From positions 5,282 to 69,281 of the forward strand of contig JAZRIB010000012.1 of the NCBI GenBank assembly GCA_045645065.1: 64,000 bases of DNA, read 5' to 3'. Positions within the stretch are counted from its first letter, which is position 1. Each line of letters starts with the position of its first letter. The notes below the pieces were generated by a model. The model did no database searches. It was not told the origin of the DNA and worked only from the letters and a program-made list of their open reading frames with translations. Shown one piece after another: positions 24,139-53,938 of this stretch. This DNA is from Candidatus Enterousia sp. Its GTDB lineage: Bacteria; Pseudomonadota; Alphaproteobacteria; Rs-D84. The translations under genes were made by a program, and so were the position numbers.

Positions 24139-24885
24139 ATGGCAAAATATGATCCATTGATGCGTGCGGGTCATCGGGAACGTCTGCGTAAGAAATTTGA
24201 CGCAGGTAACGCCAGTGACAACGACGAAATGGAATTATTATTGACATATATTGTTGCGCGACGCGATGTTCGTATTCCTGCGCGGTTATTGATGGAAAAA
24301 TTTGGTTCTGCATATAATGCGATGGTTGCCACCCCAGAAGATATTAAATCTGTGCCTGGGGTTGGTGATGGCGTTGCGACTTTTTTCAAATTATTACACA
24401 GTATTGTATCAAAAGGTTATCGCCAGCGTGACAGGCTAGAATCTGTTATAATAAATTCTGCCCGCTTACAAGAATATTGTCGTATGCACTTGGCAAACAA
24501 ACCGACCGAAGAAATGCATGTTATGTATCTGGATAATATGGGCCGTTTGTTATGCACAGAATTAAATGATATTGGAACTGTAAATCGATCAAACGTATAT
24601 CCAGACAAAATTTTAGCACGTGCGTTGATGTCTGGTGCGTCACGTGTTGTGTTATTTCATAATCATCCTGTGGGCGATTGTTCTGCATCCAATGCTGACG
24701 TTGATATGACGTTGGCACTGGGCAGGATATTATTGCAACACAACATTACAATCTATGATCATTTGATAATTGATTCATATGGTTTGATATACAGTATGCG
24801 CACCACAAACGTTCTTGATGAACTGGACAGGCTTGCGGCTGAATTACGCCTAGAACAAATCAGAAACATCACAAACGCTTTCTAA
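24139..24885 (+). CDS. radC: RadC-like JAB domain protein
   Basis: HhH region (VPGVGDGVATF) and the JAMM motif LFHNHPVGDCSASNADV. Confidence 0.85.
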   Translation: MAKYDPLMRAGHRERLRKKFDAGNASDNDEMELLLTYIVARRDVRIPARLLMEKFGSAYNAMVATPEDIKSVPGVGDGVATFFKLLHSIVSKGYRQRDRLESVIINSARLQEYCRMHLANKPTEEMHVMYLDNMGRLLCTELNDIGTVNRSNVYPDKILARALMSGASRVVLFHNHPVGDCSASNADVDMTLALGRILLQHNITIYDHLIIDSYGLIYSMRTTNVLDELDRLAAELRLEQIRNITNAF

Positions 24886-25479
24886 TTGTGTTGTTTGGTG
24901 TTGTGATAATTTGTTGTTTTCCATTACGTATTCTGTTTTATTGGCCATCGATGGTGTATCCCATGTATCTGCAAAAGGTCGCGAAATAATCGTTGCACCA
25001 AACGTTGGTGCAAAGTGGAATTGTATTAATCGTAATGCACAATCTGCACCGTGGGTGGTACGAAATCCTTTTGGGGTAATGTTCTGCATTTTTCCATTGT
25101 TATTAATTTCAATTTTGTATTCATCATAATCGTGTGCATTACCTGTTGCAATATGCGTGCGTGTAATAAGATCAGGCGTACCGTCATTGTTAATATCGCG
25201 TGCAAATTCAGATATACTTTCGATACCTGCGCCAAATTCGTCCAGTAATCCGCGTGTTATTGTGTCTGGGGTCCCCAGTCCATCTGAAAAAGCCCCAGAA
25301 TGTTTTTTTGATTTTGTTATATGGTTATTAATAGTTGGACTTTCGATTGCGGTATTTGTGCCACTTTTTTGGAAATCGCCATTTATCAGCATAAATAACA
25401 ATGCGCAAACAGATGCTAACAAAATCATTAATAACACATTGACCGCGATTCCGCCTTGTTGAGATTTCATTTCATACAC
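24850..25479 (-). CDS. Membrane-anchored hypothetical protein with one FG-GAP/VCBS-like DINNDGTPDLI motif
   Basis: N-terminal TM segment. Single calcium-binding-like motif. Confidence 0.4.
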   Translation of the reverse strand: MYEMKSQQGGIAVNVLLMILLASVCALLFMLINGDFQKSGTNTAIESPTINNHITKSKKHSGAFSDGLGTPDTITRGLLDEFGAGIESISEFARDINNDGTPDLITRTHIATGNAHDYDEYKIEINNNGKMQNITPKGFRTTHGADCALRLIQFHFAPTFGATIISRPFADTWDTPSMANKTEYVMENNKLSQHQTTQLESVCDVSDLF

Positions 25480-25485
25480 CTTTTG

Positions 25486-26541
25486 TTAAATTTTTTCAAT
25501 TTGTCCTGGTTCCCAGCCTTCGATTTGTCGAATTGCATTTACGACCTTGTCTAATTCAGCATCGTTTAATTCAGATATTCTGCGATTAACAGACAGTCCT
25601 GTTAATCGTTCGATACTGCGTTGATATGCCACAGTATTGTTTTCTGATGGTGGTGCATATCGACTGACTGCGTTCGCAATAGTCAGGTTTTTATAACTGT
25701 TTCCTGTTAATAATTGTTTTACTGCGCGCGCACCGGTTTGTTCATCTGGAAATACAGCAAACCCGCCGGCTTCACCAATTGCGCCTGCGCGTCGTGAAAA
25801 TTCAGACATTCTGATATTACCTGGGTTATTATTGCGCCATGCACGTGTTCCGCCGACATGTTTGTATTGTGTATTGTCTGTGGCAACATAAATAACATCT
25901 TTGCCAGACGCAATTGCACGCACCGGCGTCATATTCTGTGTGCTTTCTGTGCGCAGCACAGGCGTTGTGTTTATTGTGGTGTTCGTGCTGGGTTGTAATT
26001 GCCCAGATGTGTTGTTGTCTGTGTTTGGATTTATAACACCTGGGGTGCCGCTGGCACTTAATGACGCCACAGAATAGGGCATTTGTGCCATATTGACCCC
26101 AGAATCATAAATGTTTAATTCTTCGTACAGTTGAAATTCATCATATTTTTTCATTTTGTCATTACGCATATCTAACAGCGCATTAACTTTTTCCAGTGGT
26201 ATTGCCACAGTTTTGCAACCTTGACCGATTAAATCGCCACCATATATTGTGTTCACAAATACAGGCACCGCACATATCGTCCCCAGTATCAGTATTAAAT
26301 TTTTTACATTGTTCATAACAGACGCGGATTCGGCATTTTTTGAACCGCGTATCATTGCCCATGCCCATCCTGCTAACAAGATACCTGTTATAAATAACAG
26401 AACAGACCATGCGTATTCTAAAAATATTTGAAAACTGCGAACGACACAGCCCGGGTCTTCCATGTAAATATTTGCACTGTCCGCCCCCAGGTTATGAAAA
26501 CCTGAATTATTAAGCAGTGCAAGTATCGTTTCAATTTCCAT
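25486..26541 (-). CDS. Membrane protein with C-terminal conserved domain (WRNNNPGNIR motif), function unknown
   Basis: Two N-terminal TM helices, a Thr/Asn-rich linker, and a C-terminal GGTRAWRNNNPGNIR..GFAVFPDEQTG block that I recall from phage- or secretion-associated proteins but cannot name. Confidence 0.45.
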   Translation of the reverse strand: MEIETILALLNNSGFHNLGADSANIYMEDPGCVVRSFQIFLEYAWSVLLFITGILLAGWAWAMIRGSKNAESASVMNNVKNLILILGTICAVPVFVNTIYGGDLIGQGCKTVAIPLEKVNALLDMRNDKMKKYDEFQLYEELNIYDSGVNMAQMPYSVASLSASGTPGVINPNTDNNTSGQLQPSTNTTINTTPVLRTESTQNMTPVRAIASGKDVIYVATDNTQYKHVGGTRAWRNNNPGNIRMSEFSRRAGAIGEAGGFAVFPDEQTGARAVKQLLTGNSYKNLTIANAVSRYAPPSENNTVAYQRSIERLTGLSVNRRISELNDAELDKVVNAIRQIEGWEPGQIEKI

Positions 26542-30996: not shown

Positions 30997-31025
30997 TTGA
31001 CATGGGGTAAAAATACATGTATAAT
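30997..31025 (+). promoter_or_regulatory. Consensus sigma70 promoter for tRNA-Glu
   Basis: TTGACA, 17-nt spacer, TATAAT, about 30 nt upstream of the tRNA. Confidence 0.6.
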
Positions 31026-31056: not shown

Positions 31057-31132
31057 GGCCCCATCGTCTAGAGGCCCAGGACACCGCCCTTTCAAGGCGA
31101 GAACACCGGTTCGAATCCGGTTGGGGCTGCCA
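31057..31132 (+). tRNA. tRNA-Glu (anticodon TTC)
   Basis: GGCCCCATCGTCTAGAGGCCCAGGACACCGCCCTTTCAAGGCGAGAACACCGGTTCGAATCCGGTTGGGGCTGCCA. Closely resembles E. coli tRNA-Glu. CCA is encoded. Confidence 0.92.
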
Positions 31133-31144
31133 AAATAAACAAAA

Positions 31145-31165
31145 CCGCATTTTTGCGGTTTTTTC
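31145..31165 (+). terminator. tRNA-Glu terminator hairpin (also the first junction hairpin of the cassette array)
   Basis: CCGCA-tttt-TGCGG plus a T-run. The identical hairpin recurs at 34232..34250. Confidence 0.7.
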
Positions 31166-31242
31166 ATTGGATTTTCAATACTTTCAGCAGTTCGTAAGTT
31201 GGGTATCAAAAATAGACATCGTTTTACCAATTTACGAACTTT
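31161..31242. repeat. Rep-1 copy A
   Basis: ..ttttcaatactttcagcAGTTCGTAAgttgggtatcaaaaa..ccaatTTACGAACTtttt. Internal 9-bp inverted repeat. Ends at the stop codon of the minus-strand cassette gene. Confidence 0.75.
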
Positions 31243-32010
31243 TTATCTTTTTTCAATCTTTTGATAGCCGCGGAATTTGCCAATATCAAATCCACCGCCG
31301 GCACGCATTACATAATTGTAAAATGCCTTTATCGCATCCATTTTTGCCGTCTTGGATTTCGCATTCATACACGCCAACAGTTTATCTGTAAATGTCTTTG
31401 GTGGCATTGCTTGGATATGATATCTTTTTGCAAATTCTGGGTCAGTCAAAATCGGCTCAATCTTACTACGCGGCGGATGTGGCATATTCTTGAAATCATA
31501 GTATGCAGATATCAACGCATCCACCACAGACCAATATTGCATATCAATATGATATCCACGTGCATCTAGCGACAATAACTCATCGTATTTATCCCACAGA
31601 TGATATTTTTTGAAATCCAAAGCATATTTTGAATAAGGTTTTATTGGCTTTTTCAAATCACGAATTGCACGTTGGCGTAATTTTTTTACCTCCCCATTTT
31701 TATCATACAAGACAACCCCATACACAAACATACTTTGGGTGATATAAGCGCGCCCAGCCATTTGCATATCCATATATTCTTGATATTTATAAATCGGATT
31801 GATTGTATATTCCATTAAAAAACCATCAACCCAACAATTAGATTTTTCCTGCCAACCGATATTATCAGATGCCACAATCGTCACATCTATATCCGAAAAC
31901 TTTGTTTGATTGCCTGTGGTATAAGAACCGCACAATAAAGCCCCCTCAAACCATGGCTCGTTGATATATCTTACCAAGAATTTATTTAATGCGATTTCCC
32001 ATTTTTGCAT
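31243..32010 (-). CDS. Nucleotidyltransferase-domain protein (ANT/Lnu-like fold)
   Basis: LLCGSYTTGNQTKFSDIDVTIV, the GS-x10-DxD pol-beta NTase motif. Confidence 0.7.
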   Translation of the reverse strand: MQKWEIALNKFLVRYINEPWFEGALLCGSYTTGNQTKFSDIDVTIVASDNIGWQEKSNCWVDGFLMEYTINPIYKYQEYMDMQMAGRAYITQSMFVYGVVLYDKNGEVKKLRQRAIRDLKKPIKPYSKYALDFKKYHLWDKYDELLSLDARGYHIDMQYWSVVDALISAYYDFKNMPHPPRSKIEPILTDPEFAKRYHIQAMPPKTFTDKLLACMNAKSKTAKMDAIKAFYNYVMRAGGGFDIGKFRGYQKIEKR

Positions 32011-32036
32011 TTTTAACCCTTTTGTTATTTAAAATT

Positions 32037-32138
32037 ATTATATCACAAAATGTGTAAAAATGCCTTAACATCTTTCCCTAACAACAATAACTCACGCATT
32101 TCATCGGTTCGTGAATTGCACAGATGTCCCTGCCAAAA
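32037..32138. repeat. Rep-2 copy 1
   Basis: attatatcacaaaa..tgccttaacatctttccctaacaacaa..gttcgtgaattgcacagatgtccctgccaaaa. Followed by hairpin 32146..32161. Confidence 0.7.
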
Positions 32139-32357
32139 ATAACAAACGACCTTTGGGTCGTTTTTTATTTTTGCCAAACGCACCCCAACCGGATCGGTCA
32201 GAGCAACACAGTTGCGCATGACCAATACGCAGACAAACAATTAGCAAACCTGCAAAAACGGATATGGTTAATAGAGTTTTTGCGTCTAGGTTTGGTTATT
32301 GGTTATCAAGGGGCGATGTTGGGGCTGACAAGAATCAAAACCGACCTTTTGGGTCGG

Positions 32358-32445
32358 TTTTTTCTTTGTTTTCCAATACTTGCGCGAGTTCGTAAATCGG
32401 GTATCAAAAACAGCCACGATTTCACCCATTTACGGACTTTTTACA
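32358..32445. repeat. Rep-1 copy B
   Basis: tttgttttccaatacttgcgcgagttcgtaaatcgggtatcaaaaac..cccatttacggacttttt. Confidence 0.75.
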
Positions 32446-32464
32446 GTTTTTATACCGAACTAGA

Positions 32465-34015
32465 CTATGCAGCGCGCTGATATTCACAACATTTCTGTTG
32501 GTACATGTTTGTATATTTTTGCATACGTAACAAGTTGTATTCACGTTCGCATTTTTCTTTATATGCCTGCGCCCGGATTTTGTTATTAACACATGCTGAC
32601 CAAGTCATTTGTGCTTTGCTTAATTGCTGTTCCAACTTTCTTTTCTTTGGATCATTTGCCGGTGTTCTGGCGTATTCATTTTTGATTCTTTCTTTTTCTG
32701 CTGTGGCGGCTTTTAATCTGTCCACCGCACAATCGTAATCACGAATAGCTTGTTGCAATTTATTCCATGCCTGTTGTATCCGATTACCATATTCAGGACG
32801 AGGCTGACGTGGCTGCTCTGGACGAGATTGTCCCCCACGATTTCTGATGTATCGCGACATAACACTGTACGCCTCGTTTATTTGTTGCATCTTGCGTTTT
32901 GCTGCTTCTTCATTACCCTGGTTTCTGTCTGGGTGCCAGATTTTACACAGTTTACGATATGCCGCTTTTACTTCCTGTTCGGTTGCGTTCAAGGACACAC
33001 CTAAAATGCTTGCTGCCTGTTGCGGCGTCATAACCGCCTTGGCAAACGATTTTATATTCTGGGTATTTTGTTTCGTTTTCTGGGCGGCTTTATATATATC
33101 CTGATAATTTTCTGTTCCTTGCTGGGTACTGCTTTGTGGTTTGCCCTGCTCATCATAGGTTACAGAAGACACAACCTTGCCGTCTTGGTAATTTGTTATT
33201 GTGCACAAATTTCCAGATGGATAATATGTTGTCTGAGACATGGTTTCCAGACTATCGCCTTTCTTAACACGTCTGGTGATACAGGCAACTTTATCGCCAT
33301 TAAAACTTATCTCGTCATATTCACCTAATTGGGCCGATACTTGCAATTTGCCATTTTCGCTGTATTGCGTTATAGAAGCAATGTATGAGGCCGCTTCATC
33401 TTCTTGGTTTTCGGAATGCCACTGACCTGTGCGTTTTGTCTTTTGCTTATACGTGATATGACTGGCCATTTGTCCATTTGGATAGTATTGTTTGGTGTCT
33501 GTTGTCAGCCATTTTTCACGTCCTGGGCCAAACCAGTCCGTCATTTTCACCTTATGTGCAGAAGACACTATGTATCCAGCATCATTGAATGAAATTTCTT
33601 CGATTTCAGTTGTTTTGCCAAAATCATTGTATTCCGACAAATGTTTGATAACAGATCGAACATATCCCGATGGCGCAAAGTTCACAATATCGTTTTTGTT
33701 AGCGTTTATAGTCGCAACAATGTGGCCGTTTTCATCATATTGAGAAATGGCCCTGTTACCCCTAAAATCACGACGTGTAATTGATGCAACGCACCCATTA
33801 TGATATGTTATGTCTTTTTCATTAAAGAAAAAATCGTCCATTTTTTCTTTGAACACAGCCTGACCCTGGGAATCGTATTGAATTAAATATTTATCGAATC
33901 CGATTTTTAATATCTGTGTAGCCAAAGAACCGTCCGGACGGCGTGTTTCAGAAATGATATTTTCTGCTTTGTTGATTGATGATGTTTCAGGAAGATTTGT
34001 TTTTACGTTTGTCAT
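32465..34015 (-). CDS. J-domain protein with N-terminal YD/MORN-like repeats and C-terminal coiled coil
   Basis: AASILGVSLNATEQEVKAAYRKLCKIWHPDRN (HPD tripeptide). Repeats such as QYDENGHIVA, YYPNGQMAS, YSENGKLQ, TYDEQGKP. Confidence 0.7.
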   Translation of the reverse strand: MTNVKTNLPETSSINKAENIISETRRPDGSLATQILKIGFDKYLIQYDSQGQAVFKEKMDDFFFNEKDITYHNGCVASITRRDFRGNRAISQYDENGHIVATINANKNDIVNFAPSGYVRSVIKHLSEYNDFGKTTEIEEISFNDAGYIVSSAHKVKMTDWFGPGREKWLTTDTKQYYPNGQMASHITYKQKTKRTGQWHSENQEDEAASYIASITQYSENGKLQVSAQLGEYDEISFNGDKVACITRRVKKGDSLETMSQTTYYPSGNLCTITNYQDGKVVSSVTYDEQGKPQSSTQQGTENYQDIYKAAQKTKQNTQNIKSFAKAVMTPQQAASILGVSLNATEQEVKAAYRKLCKIWHPDRNQGNEEAAKRKMQQINEAYSVMSRYIRNRGGQSRPEQPRQPRPEYGNRIQQAWNKLQQAIRDYDCAVDRLKAATAEKERIKNEYARTPANDPKKRKLEQQLSKAQMTWSACVNNKIRAQAYKEKCEREYNLLRMQKYTNMYQQKCCEYQRAA

Positions 34016-34138
34016 GATAGCACCTCTTGGTTATGCTGTTCATGATACGGCTTACTCTCCGTATCATGTATATATAGCACAACAATCGTGTTTGTCAAGT
34101 TATATTATAATAAATTTATACGTTTTTTATAAAGACTT

Positions 34139-34220
34139 CAAAAACGCCTTAACGTCTCTCCCAAACATCAACAAATCATGAATAAACCTTGTTCGTGAAT
34201 TGCACGAGACGCCCTGCCAG
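34139..34220. repeat. Rep-2 copy 2
   Basis: cgccttaacgtctctcccaaacatcaacaaatcatgaataaaccttgttcgtgaattgcacgagacgccctgccag. Confidence 0.7.
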
Positions 34221-34245
34221 AATAGAAAAAACCGCATTTTTGCGG

Positions 34246-34330
34246 TTTTTTCTTTGTTTTCCAATACTTGCGCGAGTTCGTAAGTCGGGTATCAAAAACC
34301 AATATCGCTTTGCAGATGTATGAATTTTTT
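34246..34330. repeat. Rep-1 copy C (3' half degenerate)
   Basis: tttgttttccaatacttgcgcgagttcgtaagtcgggtatcaaaaacc.. Confidence 0.7.
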
Positions 34331-34813
34331 TTATCTGTGTTTATAACGTGTAAAAGGTGTGGCCAAATAACTATATTGTCTGGAAATATCTTGATATGTT
34401 GTTCCTTCGCTCACATAAATTACACCACCAACGTCTGTCAATGTAATAGATATAATTTTGTTTGCCCGTTTTGCAGATGCAATCGCAATAGCAGAAATCA
34501 TTTCTAGTGTCGATCGGTCCGCAATGAATCTGATATCTTTTTTTTGTAATACTTTTAAATATTCTGTTTTTGCTGAACTTACTTCGTGTAAAACTTGTTC
34601 TATACGACTGGACAAATTAATTGGCAAGAAAAACATATTATCATAATTTATAAAACCATCTTTGCCATTCTCCGAATTCAAAAAGAAAGCAATACAGTAT
34701 TTAATATATTCTGTGGCATTTCTATCATCTTTTATAAAAAAATAATGTTTTCCTTCTTCTGTGACAAAATGCGAAACAGGTATAGGGTGTTTGAACTCTT
34801 TAATTTTTGGCAT
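34331..34813 (-). CDS. Hypothetical protein
   Basis: 160-aa cassette ORF with no motif. Confidence 0.45.
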   Translation of the reverse strand: MPKIKEFKHPIPVSHFVTEEGKHYFFIKDDRNATEYIKYCIAFFLNSENGKDGFINYDNMFFLPINLSSRIEQVLHEVSSAKTEYLKVLQKKDIRFIADRSTLEMISAIAIASAKRANKIISITLTDVGGVIYVSEGTTYQDISRQYSYLATPFTRYKHR

Positions 34814-34958
34814 TTTTTACGCCTTTATATGTCATATTTATCGTTATTATATTATGCTTTGTAATAAAGTCAATATGATCATACTATTCGTATTTATTCA
34901 AAAATTTTTTATTTCTTTCCCGAACGACAATAAAATCTATTTGTTGCAATATTTATAA

Positions 34959-35555
34959 TCACTCTGGCAAGTCGTTCGTTGAATTAAACAATACGGTTTG
35001 CATGCCTAAAGTTTTCGCAGATTGTATGTTTTTAGGGTCATCATCTATCAAACAAATTTCAGAAAAGGGGACTTTCAGTTTTTGTTGTATTTTTATAAAA
35101 AACACAGGGTCTGGTTTTGATGTTCCGATGTTGGAAGATATAAAAATATTTTCAAAAAACTCGTGTAATTCAGGTATGTGTTCCCAAATATATTTCATAC
35201 GAACATTTGGTTGGTTAGAAGCAATATGAAAATGGTTTTCTGGATTATGATGTTTGCGTATCCAATCTAAAACATCTGGATTGATTCGCGAATCTCGGGA
35301 CAACCAATATTCCAAAAATTCTTCCGCTGTTATTTTTAAATTATGTTTTTGCAAGAAAGTATTAACGTATGGCCGTAAATCATCATTGGTTAGCAACATA
35401 GTTAAAAATGGTTCACAAAATAAATCTTTTAAAATTCTTGGGGATTGTCCAAAATCGTTTTTAAAATTCTGTGACCAATAGAAGTTTACGTTGTTATCTT
35501 TATCAAAAAAGAAAGTTGTTAATAAAGTATTATCCAAATCTATTAAATAATGCAT
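34959..35555 (-). CDS. HAD-superfamily hydrolase, paralog of 496..1095
   Basis: Start moved to MHYLIDLDNTLL (ATG 35555). LIDDD near the C-terminus. A TTGAAA-18-TATAAT promoter lies just upstream. Confidence 0.7.
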   Translation of the reverse strand: MHYLIDLDNTLLTTFFFDKDNNVNFYWSQNFKNDFGQSPRILKDLFCEPFLTMLLTNDDLRPYVNTFLQKHNLKITAEEFLEYWLSRDSRINPDVLDWIRKHHNPENHFHIASNQPNVRMKYIWEHIPELHEFFENIFISSNIGTSKPDPVFFIKIQQKLKVPFSEICLIDDDPKNIQSAKTLGMQTVLFNSTNDLPE

Positions 35556-35616
35556 AGCGGTGCTCTTTTTGTTATTCATTATACCGCAATATACCATGAT
35601 TTTTCAATAAGTACAT

Positions 35617-35699
35617 CAAAAACACTTTAACATCTTTCCCAAACCACAACAAATCATGAACAAACTCTGTTCGCAAATTGCACGAGACGCCCTGCCAAA
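35617..35699. repeat. Rep-2 copy 3
   Basis: cactttaacatctttcccaaaccacaacaaatcatgaacaaactctgttcgcaaattgcacgagacgccctgccaaa. Followed by hairpin 35708..35725. Confidence 0.7.
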
Positions 35700-35731
35700 T
35701 CTGATTTTCCGTCCGTTTGGGCGGATTTTTA

Positions 35732-35830
35732 TTGAAAAAAATTGCGTTTTATGATATAATAAACACATTCAGCGGACGACATTGGTCGTCTATTTTTATT
35801 ACCCGCCACGTGCGGGTATTTTTTTTACCA
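35732..35830 (+). promoter_or_regulatory. Extended -10 promoter plus leader with two hairpin/T-run elements upstream of the GH108 gene
   Basis: TTGAAA (35732-37), 17-nt spacer, TGaTATAAT (to 35760). Then GGACGAC-attg-GTCGTC plus Ts, and TACCCGC-cacgt-GCGGGTA plus T9. Confidence 0.5.
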
Positions 35831-35841
35831 AAGGATTAAAT

Positions 35842-36906
35842 ATGTCAATCAAAGAATACACATCTATGCGAACCAAAGATTGGGTTCAGGCCGCAGGCAC
35901 ACTGGCCAACATATACGCAAAATTAAAAGGACAACAAGGCACTAATAATGGTCGTGATTCAACCGAACAATGCGATGGAATCGTTCAAGTGTCCGGATAC
36001 ACACGTGCCGATGGTACCGAAGTTGCACCATACGAGCGTATTTGCCCATATCACTATAACGGACAAAAACCAGAAAATAAGGATAAAAAAGAAGATAAGA
36101 ATAAAGAAAAAGATTTTAGCCTGAATGGTACAGTGTCATCGAGTGAAACAACAAATGATGACGATGTTATAAAACTGAAAAAGAACCTGTATAAAATGAA
36201 TTACTATAAGCCCAACGAGCGTAGCGAGCCTGACGGGCAGTTTCACAAATATGCAAATACAGAACTGATTACAGCGATTAAGGATTTTCAACGCGATAAC
36301 AATTTACCCGAAACCGGGCGAATATCATCGGGCGACGAAACAGAACGTGTGTTGAATAAAATCTTACGGCAAACATATCCATATAACAGAAACTTTGAAC
36401 GCGCATATAATAAATTACAAGAACCCGAAGGGGACTATACAGATGGCAAAGACCAAGTTCGAGATGAACCGACTAATATGGGCATAAAACAAAGCACGCT
36501 GGACAGATACGCTAACAAGCATCCAGACAAAAATTTCCCAGCAGATGTAAAATATCTAACCGCCACACAGGCCAAAGAAATCTATCGGCATGAATATTGG
36601 GATAATACAAAAATCCCAGAAATCAAAAACGACAGAATACGCGATGCGGTTTTCGATATGAATGTAATGGGACAATACAATGCAGGAAAAGTTGTTCAAC
36701 GCACATTGAATGCATACAGTGATACAAACTTAGTCGTTGATGGCATTATTGGGTCAAAAACAATATCTGAGCTAAATAGTATCCCAAGCAATAAAATTAA
36801 CGAGTTTATGAAAATTCTAATTGAGCAACGTATGAATAATTTACGAGGTATGACAAACTGGTCAACATCTAAAAACGGATGGACCAAGCGGACAAAAGCA
36901 TATTAG
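35842..36906 (+). CDS. Peptidoglycan hydrolase: PG_binding_1 + glycoside hydrolase 108 + PG_binding_3
   Basis: Start moved to MSIKEY. ITAIKDFQRDNNLPETG (PGB1), EGDYTDG..DEPTNMGI (GH108 catalytic block), VVDGIIGSKT (PGB3). Confidence 0.75.
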   Translation: MSIKEYTSMRTKDWVQAAGTLANIYAKLKGQQGTNNGRDSTEQCDGIVQVSGYTRADGTEVAPYERICPYHYNGQKPENKDKKEDKNKEKDFSLNGTVSSSETTNDDDVIKLKKNLYKMNYYKPNERSEPDGQFHKYANTELITAIKDFQRDNNLPETGRISSGDETERVLNKILRQTYPYNRNFERAYNKLQEPEGDYTDGKDQVRDEPTNMGIKQSTLDRYANKHPDKNFPADVKYLTATQAKEIYRHEYWDNTKIPEIKNDRIRDAVFDMNVMGQYNAGKVVQRTLNAYSDTNLVVDGIIGSKTISELNSIPSNKINEFMKILIEQRMNNLRGMTNWSTSKNGWTKRTKAY

Positions 36907-37277
36907 TTTTTGACTGGTGGCATAGCATTCAAAACATCAACCGCCCCAGGTATTTTATATATCTCTGAGCAACCTGCCATCAGTCCGACATTTTTACCGT
37001 CTACATATGTATATGCAATATCCACAGGAGCATCATTTATATAAATTTCATAAATATCTTCGCCAGGTTGCATAAAAGAGATTTTCTGAACGGTATTCAA
37101 CTTTGCTGTTGCATCATCACACAAGGGACAATATGCAATGTATTCGGTTGTGTTCAACAGGATATCGTATGCTTTATCAAATGCATTTTTATCAAGATAT
37201 GCGCATAAATCTGCTTTTCCTGACAATGGAAAAAACAACAAGATAAACAATGTAAAAAAAATATAATTTTTTTTCAT
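36903..37277 (-). CDS. Small secreted protein (signal peptide), unknown
   Basis: MKKNYIFFTLFILLFFPLSGKA signal. Convergent with the GH108 gene and overlapping its stop. Confidence 0.5.
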   Translation of the reverse strand: MKKNYIFFTLFILLFFPLSGKADLCAYLDKNAFDKAYDILLNTTEYIAYCPLCDDATAKLNTVQKISFMQPGEDIYEIYINDAPVDIAYTYVDGKNVGLMAGCSEIYKIPGAVDVLNAMPPVKN

Positions 37278-37291
37278 GCTTTGTAGTCATA

Positions 37292-37738
37292 TTGTACCAA
37301 TATACAAACAAAAATCAAGTTGCAGTATTTGATGGCAAGAAATTTACACTGTATGAAAATGACAAACCGATTATGTCATGGGATGCGGTGTCTGGCGCCA
37401 AGGGGTATCAAAGCCCAGAATATCAATATGTAAAAAAGAAAGGTACGATTCCAGAGGGCACATACGTTGCGAGACAATCAGGTTTGCAACACTACGATGA
37501 TTATAGCTTTGTAAAAAAACTCGCAAACTGGAAAGGAGGCCCCTCAGATTGGGGGAGGCATCGAGTATGGCTAGAGCCTGCAAGAAGCACCATCCTAAAA
37601 GGAAGAGACGGATTTTCAATTCATGGAGGAAAAGAATTTGGCTCTGCAGGATGTATCGACCTTGAAAAAAAGATTGATGATTTTACTAAATGGTTTGAAA
37701 ATAATAATAAGGATGTTATACTGCACGTAAGATATTAA
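37292..37738 (+). CDS. L,D-transpeptidase-fold toxin, DUF2778/Tlde1-like
   Basis: GRDGFSIHGGKEFGSAGCIDL matches the YkuD-type H..S.GC catalytic motif. TTG start only 14 nt from the divergent gene, so the 5' end is uncertain. Confidence 0.65.
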   Translation: MYQYTNKNQVAVFDGKKFTLYENDKPIMSWDAVSGAKGYQSPEYQYVKKKGTIPEGTYVARQSGLQHYDDYSFVKKLANWKGGPSDWGRHRVWLEPARSTILKGRDGFSIHGGKEFGSAGCIDLEKKIDDFTKWFENNNKDVILHVRY

Positions 37739-37740
37739 GA

Positions 37741-38073
37741 ATGAATAAATACACCAAATCTATATTCTATATCACACTGGCAATAATTACCGCTTGGAAT
37801 ATTTATATTTCAAGCGGTATTACGGAGCTAATATATGAAACAGCAATGTATGATTGCGGAGACGGTTGCCGTTGGGGTGCAGAATCTATGGGGTGGCTTT
37901 GGGCTAATCCATTCACATTTTTTATCTCTTTAGGGTTATTAGATGGAATATTTATCTGTATTACTATAATCGGCTTGTATAATACAATAAAGCGAAGATA
38001 CCGCAAGGCGTTTTACTATCTTATACTGCCGACAATTATTGGATTAATGTTTGTACGCATATTATCTTGGTAA
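37741..38073 (+). CDS. Multi-TM small protein, candidate cognate immunity protein 1
   Basis: Starts 3 nt after the toxin stop. Three hydrophobic segments and an IKRRYRKAFYYLILP motif shared loosely with 38266.. and 38787.. Confidence 0.5.
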   Translation: MNKYTKSIFYITLAIITAWNIYISSGITELIYETAMYDCGDGCRWGAESMGWLWANPFTFFISLGLLDGIFICITIIGLYNTIKRRYRKAFYYLILPTIIGLMFVRILSW

Positions 38074-38090
38074 CCATCATTATCATCTAG

Positions 38091-38269
38091 ACAAAACACC
38101 TGACATGGTTGGAGCCATCAAAAGAAACCAATACATATAGCCGTGATGATTTTAGTATTGGTGGCCAGGTTCCGCCGGTTGTATTGATTTGACAGAAAAT
38201 ATGGCAGATTTTACACAGTGGCTAAAAAAACATGGACAAGATTTGATTGTCAAAGTATCATACAGATGA
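38091..38269 (+). pseudogene. Orphan 3' fragment of a Tlde1-like toxin gene (frameshifted, catalytic His lost)
   Basis: Own translation: ..WLEPSKETNTYSRDDFSIGG.. then a +1 shift to GSAGCIDLTENMADFTQWLKKHGQDLIVKVSYR*. Aligns to residues ~95-148 of 37292..37738. Confidence 0.7.
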
Positions 38270-38568
38270 TGAGTTTCATAGCAGGCGTTTTATCTTTTAG
38301 TATACTATTATTCTTTATGAATGATTTGCGTGGACTTTTAAGTGTCAGCAAATGGGATGGCTTGCTATATTTTCTTTGTAATCAAAGCTGTTTAATACTT
38401 ATCGACCAGATTTGTATAATCTTATTCGGTATAACGTTTGTGCTGATTGCTAGTCACACAATCAAACGATATAAATGGAAATTCCTGTTTGTTCCAATAT
38501 TAGGAATGATTGTGTGGCTTATTTTAACATTGGCATACATTCTGGTTATGGATACGTTTTTTATGTGA
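38266..38568 (+). CDS. Multi-TM small protein, candidate immunity protein 2
   Basis: Start moved to MMSFIAGVL, overlapping the fragment stop (ATGATGA). TM-rich. IKRYKWKFLFVPIL motif. Confidence 0.5.
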   Translation: MMSFIAGVLSFSILLFFMNDLRGLLSVSKWDGLLYFLCNQSCLILIDQICIILFGITFVLIASHTIKRYKWKFLFVPILGMIVWLILTLAYILVMDTFFM

Positions 38569-38583
38569 CCACAATTGCTATGA

Positions 38584-38790
38584 CACGAGGTTTCTTGGGG
38601 CATTTCGCGCGTTTGGTTGGAACCATCAAATAAAACAAATACATACGGTCGTGACAATTTTAGCATACATGGCGGGTGGTGGCCGGGTTCCGCCGGATGT
38701 ATCGATTTAACAAATTATATCGATAACTTTACAAATTGGTTTGAAAATAATGGACTGGATTTGATTTTAAGTGTAAAATACAACCAATGA
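38584..38790 (+). pseudogene. Orphan 3' fragment of a Tlde1-like toxin gene (in frame, no start codon)
   Basis: Own translation HEVSWGISRVWLEPSNKTNTYGRDNFSIHGGWWPGSAGCIDLTNYIDNFTNWFENNGLDLILSVKYNQ*. Retains the H..SAGC motif but lacks the N-terminal ~85 residues. Confidence 0.7.
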
Positions 38791-39140
38791 AACACATGAA
38801 GTCTATATTATATGTTTTGGCACTACTGATATTACTGGGCTTATCAGCTATTGCAATGCTAGTGCCAATCTCTGAACTTCACTATATTTCTGTTATGGCA
38901 CCATACCCATATATACTAGATGGCGAATGTTGTAAATATATCGAATTTATGGGCTTAGAAATACGCACCATATATTATGTGGCCTTGTTGGTAATATATA
39001 CAATTGCACAATTGGTATTTGTGTGTTTTGGGATATATAAAGCCCTCATGAAAAAGTACTTTGTTGCACTGACATATCTGTTTGCCCCTGTTGCGATGGA
39101 AATATTTATGAGTTTGCTGCACTTACTGATATATAGCTAA
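38787..39140 (+). CDS. Multi-TM small protein, candidate immunity protein 3
   Basis: ATGA overlap with the fragment stop. TM-rich. LMKKYFVALTYLFAP motif. Confidence 0.5.
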   Translation: MKHMKSILYVLALLILLGLSAIAMLVPISELHYISVMAPYPYILDGECCKYIEFMGLEIRTIYYVALLVIYTIAQLVFVCFGIYKALMKKYFVALTYLFAPVAMEIFMSLLHLLIYS

Positions 39141-39224
39141 GCAAGACTTATCATTTGTTATTTTCAATCCATTCTGAAAGTTCGTTGATATTTCTGGCTA
39201 TTTCGTCATAGTCGCACAGCAATA

Positions 39225-39259
39225 AAGTTCGAAAGTCGTCCAGCTGGCCCTGCCAAAAA
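39225..39259. repeat. Rep-2 copy 4 (3' part only)
   Basis: ..gttcgaaagtcgtccagctggccctgccaaaaa followed by hairpin 39266..39281. Confidence 0.5.
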
Positions 39260-39281
39260 TCAAAATCACCCGTTTGGGCGA

Positions 39282-39366
39282 TTTTTTATTTGTTTTCCAA
39301 TACTTTCAGCAGTTCGTAAGTTGTGTATCAAAAACCACCACCGTTTCGCCAATTTACGAATTTTTA
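39282..39366. repeat. Rep-1 copy D
   Basis: tttgttttccaatactttcagcagttcgtaagttgtgtatcaaaaacc..gccaatttacgaattttt. Confidence 0.75.
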
Positions 39367-39426
39367 AAAAGAAAAGGTTAGAAATCTAACCTTTTTCATG
39401 GTTCATATATATTGTGGGTGTTTGAA

Positions 39427-39972
39427 TTATTTTTCTAATATTTTTTCCAATATATATTCGTGGTGCCATTCACCGTCTATAAAAGCAGTGTCGTGTAAAA
39501 TACCGACAATTTCATATCCTTGTTTTAACAAATTTCCCAAAGAACGAGTGTTTTTATGACGAACTTCGGTCTGTAATTTATGAACATTATTTTCAGACGC
39601 CCATTTACCAACAATCTGTTTGAATTTTGTTCCCAAACCATTCGATGTATATTTTTCCAGTATTGTTGTTCCTGATATTGCAACACGACCCGAATATGGG
39701 TGATCCGGCATTTTTTTCATTATATTTGCCGTACCAATCAATTTATCACCATCAAACGCACCTATAAATAAACTGTTTTTATCCGACCAATCTTTTTCTG
39801 CACGTTCACGTGGCACCAATGGACGCCCAGGATATTGCCAAGTCCATTTGGCACTTGGGCCTTTTCTAAATTCATTCATATATTTTACAAACGCATTATA
39901 ATCATCTATCTTCAATGGACGAATTGTAATCTCTTTACCATTTTTTAATTTAAACTTTACCGCACGTTTCAT
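39427..39972 (-). CDS. GNAT family N-acetyltransferase
   Basis: GRVAISGTTILEKYTSNGLGTKFKQ (acetyl-CoA binding Q/RxxGxG/A-like block), 181 aa. TGTGATATAAT promoter inside Rep-2 copy 5. Confidence 0.75.
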   Translation of the reverse strand: MKRAVKFKLKNGKEITIRPLKIDDYNAFVKYMNEFRKGPSAKWTWQYPGRPLVPRERAEKDWSDKNSLFIGAFDGDKLIGTANIMKKMPDHPYSGRVAISGTTILEKYTSNGLGTKFKQIVGKWASENNVHKLQTEVRHKNTRSLGNLLKQGYEIVGILHDTAFIDGEWHHEYILEKILEK

Positions 39973-40000
39973 CAGATATTCCTTTCTTTATTCACAAATA

Positions 40001-40061
40001 ATTATATCACAAAAATTTGTAGGAACAATTCTATTTCTCTCCCAAACAACAACAAATCGTG
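40001..40061. repeat. Rep-2 copy 5 (5' part only) at the distal edge of the array
   Basis: attatatcacaaaaatttgt..tctctcccaaacaacaacaaatcgtg. Abuts the stop of the methyltransferase gene. Confidence 0.5.
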
Positions 40062-40075
40062 CTGGGGGGTGGGGG

Positions 40076-40999
40076 CTATTTTTCAAACACAGCGAATAAT
40101 TCCCAATGGGAGCTGCCTACAAATTGATCAACGGGTGTCAATGTTTTTAATTTATATCCGCCACGTTCCAGTGTTTGCATATCACGTTTGAACGTCTGGG
40201 GGTTACAAGACACATAAATTACCCGTTTAACGTTACTTTTTATCAGTTCACGACATTGGGCATCTGCGCCGGCGCGTGGGGGATCCATAACCACGCAATC
40301 ATACGTGTTCAGCATTCCGACTGTTAATGGTTTTTTGAATAAATCGCGTTTTGCACCGGTGCCAACGACATCAAATCCATCGGCGTTCAGTGCGAATGTA
40401 AAATTCCCCAGACCGCAAAATAAATCCGCCACGCGTTTTGCGCCCATTGCAGCCCGAACAACCATATCGCGCAGTATATCTGCCCCATCGATGGTTGGTT
40501 GTAAAAATGCACCTGGTGAATATTTTATAGTTTTATTTCCAAAACTAACAACTGGTTCTGTTTTTGCAAATATAATGTTATCGTTCCACGTTATACGGAT
40601 TACAGGTATATTGGCACACGCGCGCCTAAATTCTGGGGTGACATACGGGATAGACGAATTTATGTTAACATCTATGCCATTGTCGCACAGTGTAACCAAA
40701 CATGCCCCAGACCCCGTCCATGGCAATTTTGATAATTCCGGTAATATGGCATTTATTTCAGGGGCCATATTAGGGCAGGTTGTTATTGGAATAATATTCT
40801 TGGTCCCAGATTCAAATAATCCAAATTCACCGCCTGCGAAACAGAAATCACCACGTCTGCGAATTCCTGGGGCAATCCAAATTGGCGAATCTGATAATGG
40901 TAATATCGGCAAAGTCTTGATTTTATTTTCGCGATAATCATCAGCGGCAAAATCAAATTTGCATCCACCACATCGACCAAGGAACGGGCATTTATTCAT
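40076..40999 (-). CDS. TrmA/RumA-family SAM-dependent RNA (uracil-5) methyltransferase without TRAM domain
   Basis: N-terminal CPFLGRCGGCKF cluster, DLFCGLGNF SAM motif, VMDPPRAGA, and C-terminal VDQFVGSSHWE. Confidence 0.75.
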   Translation of the reverse strand: MNKCPFLGRCGGCKFDFAADDYRENKIKTLPILPLSDSPIWIAPGIRRRGDFCFAGGEFGLFESGTKNIIPITTCPNMAPEINAILPELSKLPWTGSGACLVTLCDNGIDVNINSSIPYVTPEFRRACANIPVIRITWNDNIIFAKTEPVVSFGNKTIKYSPGAFLQPTIDGADILRDMVVRAAMGAKRVADLFCGLGNFTFALNADGFDVVGTGAKRDLFKKPLTVGMLNTYDCVVMDPPRAGADAQCRELIKSNVKRVIYVSCNPQTFKRDMQTLERGGYKLKTLTPVDQFVGSSHWELFAVFEK

Positions 41000-47944: not shown

Positions 47945-48142
47945 ATGAACAAATTTTTTAATGGTGGATTCCTGAACGGTTATCGCACATACATTATGTC
48001 TGGCGTTGGAATATTATCTGCGATTGCAGCATATATTGTCGGGGATACAGATATATTTATAATGTTGCAAAATATTTTTACACTGGGTGGAATTTACTTC
48101 TTACGCAAATCAAATGAACCAAAGGAAAAAACAAATGGATAA
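47945..48142 (+). CDS. Small membrane protein (holin-like by position)
   Basis: 65 aa, two hydrophobic segments, charged C-terminus. Sits next to the hydrolase. Confidence 0.4.
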   Translation: MNKFFNGGFLNGYRTYIMSGVGILSAIAAYIVGDTDIFIMLQNIFTLGGIYFLRKSNEPKEKTNG

Positions 48143-48791
48143 AATTCCAGAAAAATTTTTGAATGACGATGGAACGTTAAACGCAACTGCGCTATTAAAA
48201 TCATATTCTGAATTAGAAAAAAAGATTGGCACAATGATAACCGTACCAACAGATGACAGTGATGAAAATGTTCGCACACGTTTTAATCGCGCAATTGGTG
48301 TACCGCAATCAGCGAATGAATATCCAACAAATGAATTGTTTGATGATGAAAATCTAAAAAATAAATTTCACGAAATTGGATTAACAACACACCAAGTTGA
48401 AAAAATTTATTCTATTGCAAATGAAATTCTTGCGCCTGTGATATCAGAATTATATGCAATGCAAAATGAAAAAAACGCAATCACAGAATTAAAAAAATTT
48501 TTTGGTGACAATGAAAAAATGAATGATGCGTTGCGTGCCATTGAAGCGTTTGGTAAACAATATTTACCAGTCGATGCGTTTGATGAATTGTGTTCCTCGC
48601 CCCAGGGAATCCAAGGTGTTTATCGAATGATGCAATCAATGGAACCAAATGTTGAAACAGAAAAAAATGAAATAAAAAATTTATCAGATTCTGATTTGCG
48701 ACGTATGATGCGTGACCCAAAATATTGGCGTGATGGTGATACAGAATACATTCGCAAAATAGAAAATGGATTTAAAAAATTATATTCATAA
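48135..48791 (+). CDS. Capsid scaffolding/assembly protein (T7 gp9-like)
   Basis: Start moved to MDKIPEKFLNDDG. C-terminal LRRMMRDPKYWRDGDTEYIRKIENGF parallels the T7 gp9 tail MIKAMSDPRYRTDANYRRQVEQKV (recalled). Confidence 0.7.
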   Translation: MDKIPEKFLNDDGTLNATALLKSYSELEKKIGTMITVPTDDSDENVRTRFNRAIGVPQSANEYPTNELFDDENLKNKFHEIGLTTHQVEKIYSIANEILAPVISELYAMQNEKNAITELKKFFGDNEKMNDALRAIEAFGKQYLPVDAFDELCSSPQGIQGVYRMMQSMEPNVETEKNEIKNLSDSDLRRMMRDPKYWRDGDTEYIRKIENGFKKLYS

Positions 48792-48895
48792 GAAAAAATA
48801 TCACTTTCTTCTTTACTATTTTTTGATATTCATATAAAATACACAGTAAGAACAAAACAGATTTGTTCTATTTAAAAAATAGAAAGGAGAGGAAT

Positions 48896-49357
48896 ATGGC
48901 ATTCAGCCTGTTTAAGAAATCTGCTAAGAAAGCAGTTGCAAAACCAGTTGCAAAAAAAGAACCAGCAAAAAAACCAGTTGCAAAAAAAGCGCCTGCAAAA
49001 AAAGTAGCAGCAAAACCAGTTGCAAAGAAAGCACCTGCGAAAAAAGTAGCGGCAAAACCAGTTGCAAAGAAAGCACCTGCGAAAAAAACAGCAGCAAAAC
49101 CAGTTGCAAAGAAAGCACCTGCAAAAAAAGTAGCAGCAAAACCAGTTGCAAAGAAAGCACCTGCAAAAAAAGTAGTTGCAAAACCAGTTGCAAAGAAAGC
49201 ACCTGCAAAAAAAGTAGCGGCAAAACCAGTTGCAAAGAAAGCACCTGCGAAAAAAGTAGCAGCAAAACCAGTTGCAAAGAAAGTACCTGCGCAAAAAGTA
49301 GCAGTAAAACCATGTGCAAAAAAAGCATGTGCAAAAAAATGCGCAAAAAAGAAATAA
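48896..49357 (+). CDS. Histone H1-like Lys/Ala/Pro repeat protein with Cys-rich tail
   Basis: GGAGAGG RBS. About eight tandem [14 protein letters not shown] units. Tail [16 protein letters not shown]. Confidence 0.7.
48941..49306 (+). repeat. 42-nt coding tandem repeat (about 8 full units plus degenerate lead-in)
   Basis: aaaccagttgcaaagaaagcacctgcgaaaaaagtagcggca repeated head-to-tail with few substitutions. Confidence 0.9.
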
Positions 49358-49379
49358 TATAATTCATATTATTAATAAG

Positions 49380-49448
49380 CCCGGACAAACGTCCGGGTTT
49401 TGTTTTCTAAAAATTCAGTCAGATAAATTCCAGTCTGACTGAATTTTT
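49380..49448 (+). terminator. Two consecutive hairpins between the H1-like gene and the capsid gene
   Basis: CCCGGAC-aaac-GTCCGGG plus Ts, then a perfect 15-bp inverted repeat AAAAATTCAGTCAGA..TCTGACTGAATTTTT. Confidence 0.6.
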
Positions 49449-49573
49449 ATTGCGGACAAGTCTTGCCACCCCGCATTTATTTTTTATGTACACGGCGCAA
49501 TTTGCATAACCGTTACATAAATTTATCGCGCGTATGCGCTTTTTTGTATTTTAATCAAACAAAGGAAATAAAT

Positions 49574-50401: not shown

Positions 50402-50439
50402 CGTGCCACAAATATATTTTTAACCAAAGGATAAAACTT

Positions 50440-50673: not shown

Positions 50674-50742
50674 ATTTTTATTCAAACGGTGGTGTAATTT
50701 TACACCACCGCGAATTTATAAATAATTACAGTGGGGACAATT

Positions 50743-53934: not shown

Positions 53935-53938
53935 TTTT

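Follow-up and report, generated by a model that had tools for sequence, protein, structure and literature searches.

Organization of the array at tRNA-Glu

The 64-kb stretch of Candidatus Enterousia sp. DNA analyzed here (the window) carries, at 31.1–40.1 kb, an array of unrelated genes that begins at tRNA-Glu(UUC) (+ strand; ARAGORN, Rfam) and stops at a gene for a TrmA-like RNA methyltransferase. The genes are separated by one recurring junction module, in which a hairpin lies between two repeats, Rep-2 on its left and Rep-1 on its right. We argue that the array is probably an additive island of recombinase-less elements and that each junction is the relic of both ends of an element encoding a large serine recombinase (LSR).

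There are four matches to the Rep-1 core AGTTCGTAAGTNGGGTATCAAAAA in the window (31189, 32387, 34275, and 39311), all on the + strand, where none is expected by chance, and Rep-2 has three full and two partial copies (Table 1). Neither repeat has a copy elsewhere in the window. A second type of right end, Rep-2', closes cassette 5 and occurs in ∼15 other loci. The six junction hairpins all score as intrinsic terminators, and the array region contains 18 terminator-like sites, against 7.1 ± 2.7 in shuffled sequences. GC content is 0.33–0.37 within the array and 0.40–0.45 outside it.

Locating the repeats and hairpins, with Pfam confirming the genes (nucleotidyltransferase (NTase), DnaJ+MORN, an unknown, HAD, GH108+PG_binding, Tlde1/YkuD, GNAT, and TrmA-like methyltransferase), bears out the initial annotation, which had described unrelated genes separated by one module at tRNA-Glu. 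The module positions it listed hold for the repeats, but the supposed partial Rep-2 at 39225 is in fact Rep-2' (39141–39255). Its claim that Rep-1 always abuts a minus-strand stop codon is true in the window, but in the wider family the figure is ∼71% (89/126).

A co-oriented family in gut Alphaproteobacteria

Scanning genome contigs for the Rep-1 core gave a single locus per genome in 12 metagenome-assembled genomes labelled Alphaproteobacteria or Candidatus Enterousia, and a metagenome scan with a Rep-2 pattern added at least 80 more; the set analyzed comprises 92 loci, the window's and 91 others (comparison loci carry L-numbers below). The host order Rs-D84, which includes Ca. Enterousia, consists of uncultured bacteria with genomes <1 Mb from the farm-animal gut (PMC12306168).

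Profile searches located 163 Rep-1 and 177 Rep-2 copies in the 92 loci, and all 340 are co-oriented within arrays; four seeming exceptions are palindromic self-hits of Rep-1. A tRNA-Glu gene was found in 41 loci, and in each of these (41/41) it lies upstream of all the repeats and shares their strand. The dispersed copies in both orientations that are the hallmark of repetitive extragenic palindromic (REP) sequences and miniature inverted-repeat transposable elements (MITEs) were not seen. For the contigs scanned, one co-oriented locus headed by tRNA-Glu rules out a genome-wide REP/MITE family, in line with the locus-specific nature first proposed for the repeats.

The units have a median length of 1032 nt (interquartile range 771–1408, n = 124). 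Their 182 cargo open reading frames (ORFs) fall into 118 clusters at 30% identity, with 116 ORFs reading against the tRNA and 66 with it. GNAT acetyltransferases are the commonest family (8 clusters), alongside HAD hydrolases, methyltransferases, GH108, subtilases, NERD, ResIII, ankyrin, LRR, and DnaJ-MORN proteins. The diversity of this cargo is integron-like.

A recombinase linked in cis to the arrays was rejected, as no recurrent integrase emerged when 118 cargo representatives, 125 flank ORFs, and 10 large cargo ORFs were surveyed with Pfam. Phage carriers of the cassettes were also rejected: in two scans of viral contigs neither the Rep-1 core nor the Rep-2 core had a match. Outside the array, two minus-strand ORFs at 24850–26541 of the window have homologues that are cassettes in the L001 and L006 arrays (32–47% identity), which suggests that they may be older, fixed cassette material.

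Insertion exactly 3' of the tRNA-Glu CCA end

We catalogued 192 junctions. On their left side, CTGCCA is present in 41/41 tRNAs and in 134/151 Rep-2 copies, whereas the sequence to the right is heterogeneous: spacer, hairpin, and Rep-1 at 77 junctions; spacer, hairpin, and a non-coding X or Y element at 27; a ∼70-nt element starting CTATGAGTAGCAGAGCG at 15; an element starting TCCG at 8; other sequences, mostly spacer and hairpin followed by something else, at 62; and a contig end at 3. Insertion occurred exactly 3' of the CCA end (...CTGCCA) of tRNA-Glu. Each element has an intact tRNA on one side and, on the other, a tRNA 3' fragment that is displaced or mimicked, as in tRNA-targeting elements. 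The tRNA-Glu head of the arrays and the CTGCCA recreated at right ends support the earlier proposal of serial insertion at a tRNA-proximal site.

Apart from CTGCCA, Rep-2' resembles the 3' half of the tRNA (p = 0.007). Rep-2 as a full-length decayed tRNA-Glu was rejected, its last ∼14 nt alone being convincing (5' half, p = 0.56). Insertion 3' of CTGCCA by an HUH or IS200/IS605-type element was dropped as well; no such gene was seen, and the LSR described below accounts for the boundary.

The X and Y elements are conserved non-coding sequences of 170–290 nt (window 32164–32330, L004, L005, L006, L009, L011, and L037) that sit between a terminator and a decayed tRNA-Glu copy. Their ends are copies of the tRNA-Glu 3' end matching the local species variant, the classic mark of integration into a tRNA gene. 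Unit 2 of the window, of Y type, terminates in such a decayed copy (...CGTCTAGG..TATCAAGGGGCGATGTTGGGGCTGACA), and in L004, L007, and L037 its homologues lie between direct repeats GTTGGGGCTGCCAAAAT. Neither the X and Y elements, unit 2 included, nor the elements starting CTATGAGTAGCAGAGCG... and TCCGTC... match Rfam. The idea that the X/Y insert is a two-piece transfer-messenger RNA (tmRNA) was rejected after ARAGORN and Rfam gave no match, even at permissive E-values.

Homology of the junctions to large serine recombinase elements

Following up a Gin-like invertase beside some arrays (match to PDB 4m6f, E = 4.5e-26) led to a complete element in L105. It consists, in order, of tRNA-Glu (1510–1585), an LSR gene directly adjacent on the opposite strand, cargo that includes an autotransporter, the Gin-like invertase, Rep-2', and the tRNA terminator; Rep-2' ends in GGGGCTGCCA and is followed by the usual tRNA-Glu terminator AAATAAACAAATCGGG... 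The LSR has 559 aa with Resolvase, Recombinase, and Zn_ribbon_recom domains, and LSR representatives P0160–P0172 match PF00239, PF07508, and PF13408. In every context that we fetched (L105, L108, L109/L110, and L111/L112), the LSR gene abuts tRNA-Glu at TGGCAG, which places a site-specific recombinase beside the attachment site in some members of the family.

The L105 ORF reads ...NGNRTS|WQPQPDSNRCSRLERAVS*, so that the LSR crosses the junction and ends inside the tRNA, antisense. A tail of this kind, ...WQP[QH][PS]D[SL]NR[CD]SRLERAVS, is the antisense translation of tRNA-Glu and is found in 12 of 13 LSR cluster representatives (42–100% identity). The LSR family is predicted from these contexts to be specific for the tRNA-Glu CCA-end site.

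At the far end, the minus strand of Rep-2' encodes a conserved peptide of 33–43 aa (WQ.Q.D.FRT...Y.EI..N.N.LEEFLN..*). Its first two codons are exactly TGGCAG (W-Q), which is complementary to CTGCCA; a consistent start codon is lacking, and its relatives among 5.8 billion proteins are solely short ORFs of junctions like these. Rep-2' is coding sequence and, on the simplest interpretation, the LSR tail moved to the far end of the element. The minus-strand frame of Rep-2 (FWQGHLCNSRTDFIHDLLLFGKDVKVFL) is open in 21/27 copies, with variability peaking at the third codon position (p = 0.024); most simply, Rep-2 would be a more decayed relative of the same tail.

The other half of the junction resembles the 3' end of the LSR gene. 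Read in array orientation, LSR 3' ends run CTGCCA, a 13-nt spacer, a hairpin, a T-run, ∼35 nt, AGTTC..AA, 34 nt, and TT..GAACT, colinear with the spacer, hairpin, T-run, and Rep-1 of the cassettes and with the same 34-nt arm spacing. A covariance model built from Rep-1 copies alone matches LSR 3' ends in L109 (E = 8e-4) and L111 (E = 0.014) and LSR remnants in L107 (E = 0.003), and the Rep-1 arms correspond to LSR codons for ..SSN.. and ..SNC... By this homology, spacer, hairpin, and Rep-1 represent the final ∼140 nt of an LSR gene, read antisense. C-terminal LSR remnants of 50–80 aa lie within the arrays of L039, L047, L107, and L024 and seem to be intermediate stages of decay.

The window's 9-kb array contains no recombinase, as the initial annotation had said of integrases, yet the repeats themselves appear to be remnants of an LSR gene and its attachment site attP, which supplies the mechanism missing from that account. 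Its suspicion of a decayed coding origin for Rep-2 proved apt for both repeats.

The nearest recombinases in the window are a 194-aa tyrosine recombinase and a resolvase. Both belong to a low-GC island (7848–15582, GC 0.34–0.36) by tRNA-Asn (15507–15582, −), whose genes are the resolvase (7848–8465), an AAA_21/OLD-like ATPase (11759–13024), and the tyrosine recombinase, which has a catalytic domain only (13230–13814). The resolvase and 194-aa recombinase pair also occurs in L030 and in the distal part of the LSR elements L111/L112. LSR elements further carry a 63-aa HTH_17 (excisionase-like) ORF (L109 8027–8218, L111 8408–8599) and a conserved 116-aa ORF overlapping the LSR start codon (L109/L111 9658–10008), both candidate directionality or partner factors.

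Variation in cassette content between strains

The expectation that the locus varies between strains was borne out in three comparisons. A META lipoprotein identical to the one 5' of the window's tRNA-Glu is encoded on nine contigs, and all nine of these same-species contigs stop at or just past tRNA-Glu, L013 exactly at ...GGGGCTGCCA. L014, which encodes an identical META protein, has beyond the tRNA another hairpin and then a non-coding element in place of the window's Rep-1 and NTase gene. L022 and L026 are 98.8% identical over the tRNA and first cassette and divergent beyond, and L030 and L083 share 1.8 kb at 100% identity on the right of GGGCTGCCA and have unrelated sequence on its left. 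The repeats and the CTGCCA boundary account for the breaking of metagenome assemblies at tRNA-Glu.

Origin of the array and later exchange

We propose that the parents of the cassettes were LSR-encoding elements of ∼10 kb whose attP lay inside the 3' end of their own LSR gene, an origin that brings together what is observed of how the junctions are built, their homology to LSR elements, where exactly insertion occurs, and how content varies between strains. On integration, the LSR gene would directly adjoin CTGCCA and point towards the tRNA, and the hairpin in its 3' end would replace the terminator of tRNA-Glu. The last 30–40 codons (∼36) of the ORF would be carried to the far end of the element as Rep-2', where the tRNA-like ...CTGCCA would recreate the target for the next insertion. 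With a terminator embedded in the gene and CTGCCA at each right end, stacking would proceed in one direction.

Internal deletions would then remove the recombinase body and leave [spacer-hairpin-Rep-1]-cargo-[Rep-2-CTGCCA]; it is by deletion that we infer LSR elements became cassettes. As both ends are kept, each internal junction would amount to a pseudo-attP composed of a tail relic, a CTGCCA core, and a 3'-end relic. The window's six units would be non-autonomous elements stacked head to tail 3' of tRNA-Glu, with cassettes carrying their own promoters and hairpins insulating neighbors from each other. Since cassettes keep both ends, as MITEs do, an LSR acting in trans could plausibly mobilize them.

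Several observations weigh against this origin. No LSR is encoded in the 64-kb window or in L001–L101, so a trans-acting recombinase in the source genome is unproven, and among 5.8 billion proteins there is no unsplit LSR gene with a Rep-2' tail; the split-gene step draws on one complete element (L105) and on sequence logic. The Rep-1 covariance model gives E > 1 on the L105 LSR and E = 0.93 on that of L108. Sequences to the right of CTGCCA are too varied for one conserved LSR half-site, and the likeness of Rep-2 to tRNA-Glu beyond CTGCCA is weak (p = 0.044). Near-identical cassettes have right-hand break points that are scattered (∼−55, −30, −14, 0, and +10 to +16 nt from CCA) and left-hand ones at either end of Rep-1, a pattern that a fixed crossover would not yield.

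These variable break points, together with junctions that are mosaics of spacer, hairpin, and Rep-1 subtypes and deletion derivatives joined at 9-nt microhomologies, point to homologous recombination within the ∼200-bp junctions as the likely main process of recent exchange between strains and species, layered on an origin by site-specific insertion. Portable homology could also be the whole explanation: no dedicated recombinase would act today, and RecA-type recombination would swap, add, and delete cassettes through the junctions after DNA uptake, added cassettes entering as Campbell-type insertions of circles. The spread of break points of ≥96% identical cassettes over the module, the mosaic junctions, and the microhomology deletions all agree with it, as do the 116/116 nt that are identical in L025 after the tRNA CCA and after the Rep-2 CCA and the lack of a recombinase recurrent in cargo or array flanks. 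However, it leaves the origin of the junctions unexplained and gives no account of right ends that stop at CTGCCA or of unrelated sequences that abut it exactly, and the ∼9–14-nt overlap between tRNA-Glu and Rep-2 is too short for homologous first-position insertion across species. We consider it unlikely as a full alternative; it fits better as a second layer of the LSR-element origin.

A stronger form of the LSR-element origin, which we hold as a tentative and rather doubtful possibility, is that the mini-cassettes are a working serine-recombinase gene-capture system, a functional counterpart of the integron in genomes <1 Mb. If so, a cell acquiring an LSR element could excise, capture, and reorder recombinase-less cassettes, which keep both ends. 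The split gene would act as a switch, the integrated LSR having an antisense-tRNA or Rep-2-encoded tail and regaining its native tail solely on excision, and the inverted repeat with 34-nt spacing would be a cis-acting site for the LSR or a directionality factor.

Genomes below 1 Mb are usually thought poor in mobile DNA. Here a tRNA locus in a small genome concentrates a diverse, strain-variable pool of genes (the 118 protein families), including toxin/immunity sets, cell-wall hydrolases, acetyltransferases, and proteins with eukaryote-like repeats. A puzzling repeat would be explained as the footprint of a recombinase gene spanning its own attachment site, and the repeats with the CTGCCA boundary offer a simple rule for finding such arrays. 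Large serine recombinases are sought as genome-engineering tools, and the predicted tRNA-CCA-end-specific LSR family defined here has a short, predictable target.

Structure and regulation of the junction

Rep-2 shows no covariation in 141 distinct copies aligned without gaps (p = 0.99), and helix length is similar within copies (4.31 nt) and between them (4.42 nt). A folded Rep-2 RNA was rejected, as the CGTCTC/GAGACG and CATCT/AGATG pairings of two window copies are out of register. The inner part of Rep-1 likewise lacks covariation in 113 copies, of which 109 keep the 34-nt arm spacing. Its 9-bp outer inverted repeat, in contrast, has compensatory arm changes between subfamilies (GA/TC, GC/GC, AA/TT, and GT/AC), 97% of cells being paired, and none of 500 shuffles reached its covariation score. 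Selection therefore appears to act on the dyad itself, either as a hairpin or as a putative palindromic binding site.

A Gin/Hin-type site in Rep-1 was considered, as the motif TATCAAAAAC resembles a hix half-site and a Gin-like invertase lies beside some arrays; it was rejected on account of a poor second half-site, wrong spacing, the lack of inverted modules, and the motif being LSR coding sequence.

The junction hairpins form ∼8 discrete types recurring across species (among them CCGCA/TGCGG, CCGACC/GGTCGG, CACCC/GGGTG, ATCGGG/CCCGAT, and GACCACC/GGTGGTC), and a GC hairpin with ≥5 T in 8 nt is present at 120/189 junctions. Recurrent types with T-rich tails indicate terminators travelling with neighboring sequence rather than one site evolving by compensation, and the stem variation, which the initial annotation read as favoring selection on structure, does not speak for a recombination site selected for its structure, as attC is. 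Folding of the whole module gives similar z-scores on the two strands (−2.35 and −2.48), both dominated by the terminator, so folding does not distinguish the strands. In some hairpins the same stem carries a reverse-complemented loop (GTTT vs AAAC, TTTTA vs TAAAA; L008 5428 vs L091 9386; L009 5645), a pattern expected from template switching within palindromes.

The extended −10 ATTATATCACA (reverse complement of TGTGATATAAT) that the 5' end of Rep-2 was said to supply is present at two places in the window (Table 1), but in the family the occurrence of extended −10 motifs follows the orientation of the adjoining cargo gene, both at the Rep-2 edge (50/89 vs 6/50) and at the Rep-1 edge (14/37 vs 4/89). 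These promoters thus belong to the cargo, not to the module.

Promoter placement also bears on whether the module is regulatory, a conserved terminator with an untranslated region and promoter, or a small RNA gene (Rep-2 plus terminator), copied for insulation or expression, its mobility being incidental. The frequent GC hairpins with T-runs, the enrichment of terminators in the array region, the extended −10 motifs at cargo-facing edges, and the layout of Rep-2 plus terminator like a small RNA of ∼110 nt are all in keeping with it. We nonetheless regard it as very unlikely: promoters track cargo gene orientation, Rep-2 has neither covariation nor an Rfam match, the whole junction has no Rfam family even at permissive thresholds, and both repeats seem to be of coding or recombinase origin. 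The terminator role is real but already covered by the LSR-element origin.

Least probable of all is a true integron or cluster of attC sites lacking an integron integrase (CALIN), with junctions acting as attC sites folded single-stranded and IntI encoded elsewhere: it would suit an array of unrelated ∼1-kb cassettes that bear promoters and alternate with a repeated imperfect palindrome, the GNAT-rich cargo, as in chromosomal integrons, and one-sided Rep-1 stem changes that are mostly G.U-compatible on the + strand (an alignment-based count, and weak evidence), but the module ends, read from the sequences, have no RYYYAAC/GTTRRRY boxes, the boundary is CTGCCA| and not G|TT, the module is ∼200 nt long with fixed arm spacing and an inner part without covariation, cassette genes lie in both orientations (66 vs 116), the array is headed by tRNA-Glu wherever the head was found, no tyrosine recombinase recurs in flanks, the one in the window is a 194-aa catalytic domain alone and 17 kb away, and the module is homologous to the end of a serine recombinase gene.

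Comparison with known systems

Among the closest parallels are the ssrA islands of Dehalococcoides, where the genome is also small, islands lie in tandem 3' of a tRNA-like gene, and a repeat of that gene's 3' end marks the limit of each island (PMC3146451). Their integrase is a large serine recombinase, DsiB (∼540 aa), with a small Pin-like DsiA (∼200 aa), and the integration module is missing from about half of the islands, which were proposed to be cis-mobilizable (PMC3146451). They differ in their target (the tmRNA T-loop), direct repeat (20 bp), and size (∼10 kb or more), whereas the units described here are ∼1 kb, lie at the tRNA-Glu CCA end, and have as their repeat a putative ∼200-bp relic of both element ends, with a recombinase ORF that crosses the junction (PMC3146451).

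Like additive islands and tycheposons, the array is seeded at a tRNA in a streamlined genome, newer elements displace older ones outward, partial tRNA repeats build up along with degraded elements, and content varies between strains (10.1101/2020.12.28.424599; PMC10872708). Tycheposons, unlike this array, have tyrosine recombinases, replication modules, and plain tRNA-fragment repeats, and neither a conserved bipartite junction nor a cassette array on the kilobase scale is described for them (10.1101/2020.12.28.424599; PMC10872708). The “suicidal” archaeal integrases of Sulfolobus spindle-shaped virus (SSV) type share an attP inside the integrase ORF and a split gene whose pieces lie at both ends by a tRNA (PMC7253208, PMC8371274). 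Those are tyrosine recombinases inactivated by the split, whereas the bacterial serine recombinase would exchange just its last 30–40 codons for an antisense-tRNA tail (PMC7253208, PMC8371274).

Integrons, CALINs, and Bacteroidales rAID-1 also place small unrelated cassettes between repeats, with acetyltransferases, toxins, and orphan immunity genes at low GC (10.1101/471110). They differ from this array in the action of IntI on folded attC, with a G|TT crossover and co-oriented genes, for integrons, and in an adjacent XerD-like recombinase for rAID-1 (10.1101/471110). MITEs and cis-mobilizable elements (CIMEs) are similarly non-autonomous, keep both parent ends after loss of the recombinase, and can accrete at the parent's target site, but MITEs are transposon-derived and scattered over genomes, unlike these gene-carrying units with one site-specific target.

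In the open-access literature we found no bacterial serine recombinase described as targeting a tRNA CCA end and reading across its own junction, no kilobase-scale cassette arrays from the remnants of one, and no account of either in Ca. Enterousia. The locus belongs with the tRNA-anchored additive islands, and its unusual anatomy is well supported.

Units of the array and other features of the window

Table 1. Units of the tRNA-Glu array, its distal flank, and T7-like phage genes, in window coordinates (Rep-1 extents by nhmmer)
Feature	Position	Strand	Details
tRNA-Glu(UUC), array head	31057–31132	+	3' end ...GGGGCTGCCA, insertion point (attB left half)
Cassette 1	31133–32135	+	Spacer, hairpin 31141–31162, Rep-1 31161–31247, NTase gene, Rep-2 32056–32138
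Cassette 1, NTase gene	31243–32010	−	Extended −10 at 32037–32047 (−)
Cassette 1, right end	CTGCCA ending 32135	+	End of Rep-2
Unit 2, non-coding mini-element (Y type)	32136–32330	+	Spacer, hairpin 32144–32163
Cassette 3	32331–34219	+	Spacer, hairpin 32337–32361, Rep-1 32358–32446, DnaJ+MORN gene, Rep-2 34140–34222
Cassette 3, DnaJ+MORN gene	32465–34015	−	Pfam
Cassette 3, right end	CTGCCA ending 34219	+	
Cassette 4	34220–35697	+	Hairpin 34224–34253, Rep-1 34247–34333, two genes, Rep-2 35618–35700, CTGCCA ending 35697
Cassette 4, 160-aa unknown gene	34331–34813	−	Followed by weak Rep-2 5' relic 34913–34934
Cassette 4, HAD gene	34959–35597	−	Pfam
Cassette 5	35698–39255	+	Spacer, hairpin 35708–35725, no Rep-1, cargo, Rep-2' 39141–39255
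Cassette 5, GH108 lysozyme	35842–36906	+	Pfam
Cassette 5, 124-aa gene			Minus-strand cargo gene
Cassette 5, Tlde1 toxin	37292–37738		With membrane “immunity” ORFs and two orphan toxin C-terminal fragments
Cassette 5, right end (Rep-2')	39141–39255		Minus-strand peptide WQGQLDDFRT...*; CTGCCA at 39250–39255
Cassette 6	39256–40075	+	Spacer, hairpin 39262–39285, Rep-1 39283–39369, extra hairpin 39372–39395, GNAT gene
Cassette 6, GNAT gene	39427–39972	−	Extended −10 at 40000–40010 (−)
Cassette 6, right end	40034–40062		Truncated Rep-2 5' piece; array stops at methyltransferase stop codon
TrmA-like RNA methyltransferase gene, distal chromosomal flank	40076–40999	−	Pfam tRNA_U5-meth_tr, E = 8e-17
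T7-like capsid assembly gene	48087–48791		
T7-like capsid gene	49463–50401		
T7-like tail-fibre N-terminus	53386–53934		
T7-like terminase fragment	53891–54520		
T7-like portal gene	58744–59973		

Several units recur in other contexts. The DnaJ+MORN gene of cassette 3 is also present in L097, in a different setting, at 96.8% identity, the shared stretch beginning at the 3' end of Rep-1. The hairpin and GH108 start of cassette 5 recur in L001, and the GNAT unit of cassette 6 is common to L006, L010, and L012 (70–83% identity) with differing flanks. Cassette 4, with its two genes and internal Rep-2 relic, is probably two units fused.

Immediately 5' of tRNA-Glu, the window has a perfect sigma-70 consensus promoter (30997–31025; TTGACA, 17 nt, TATAAT; 12/12 matches). 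In cassette 5, the orphan Tlde1-toxin C-terminal fragments (38159–38264 and 38677–38782) are 75% identical, and a small membrane ORF follows each; this is the layout of an orphan toxin/immunity array.

Distal to the array, a T7-like phage structural gene cluster spans 48087–59973 (Table 1), with a helix-turn-helix regulator (55211–56260) interleaved; in this reduced genome, possible identities for the cluster are a degraded prophage and a gene-transfer-agent-like particle. Beside the capsid genes, ∼20 in-register copies of a 42-nt (15 + 15 + 12) tandem repeat occupy 48887–49390, at an ORF at 48863–49357.

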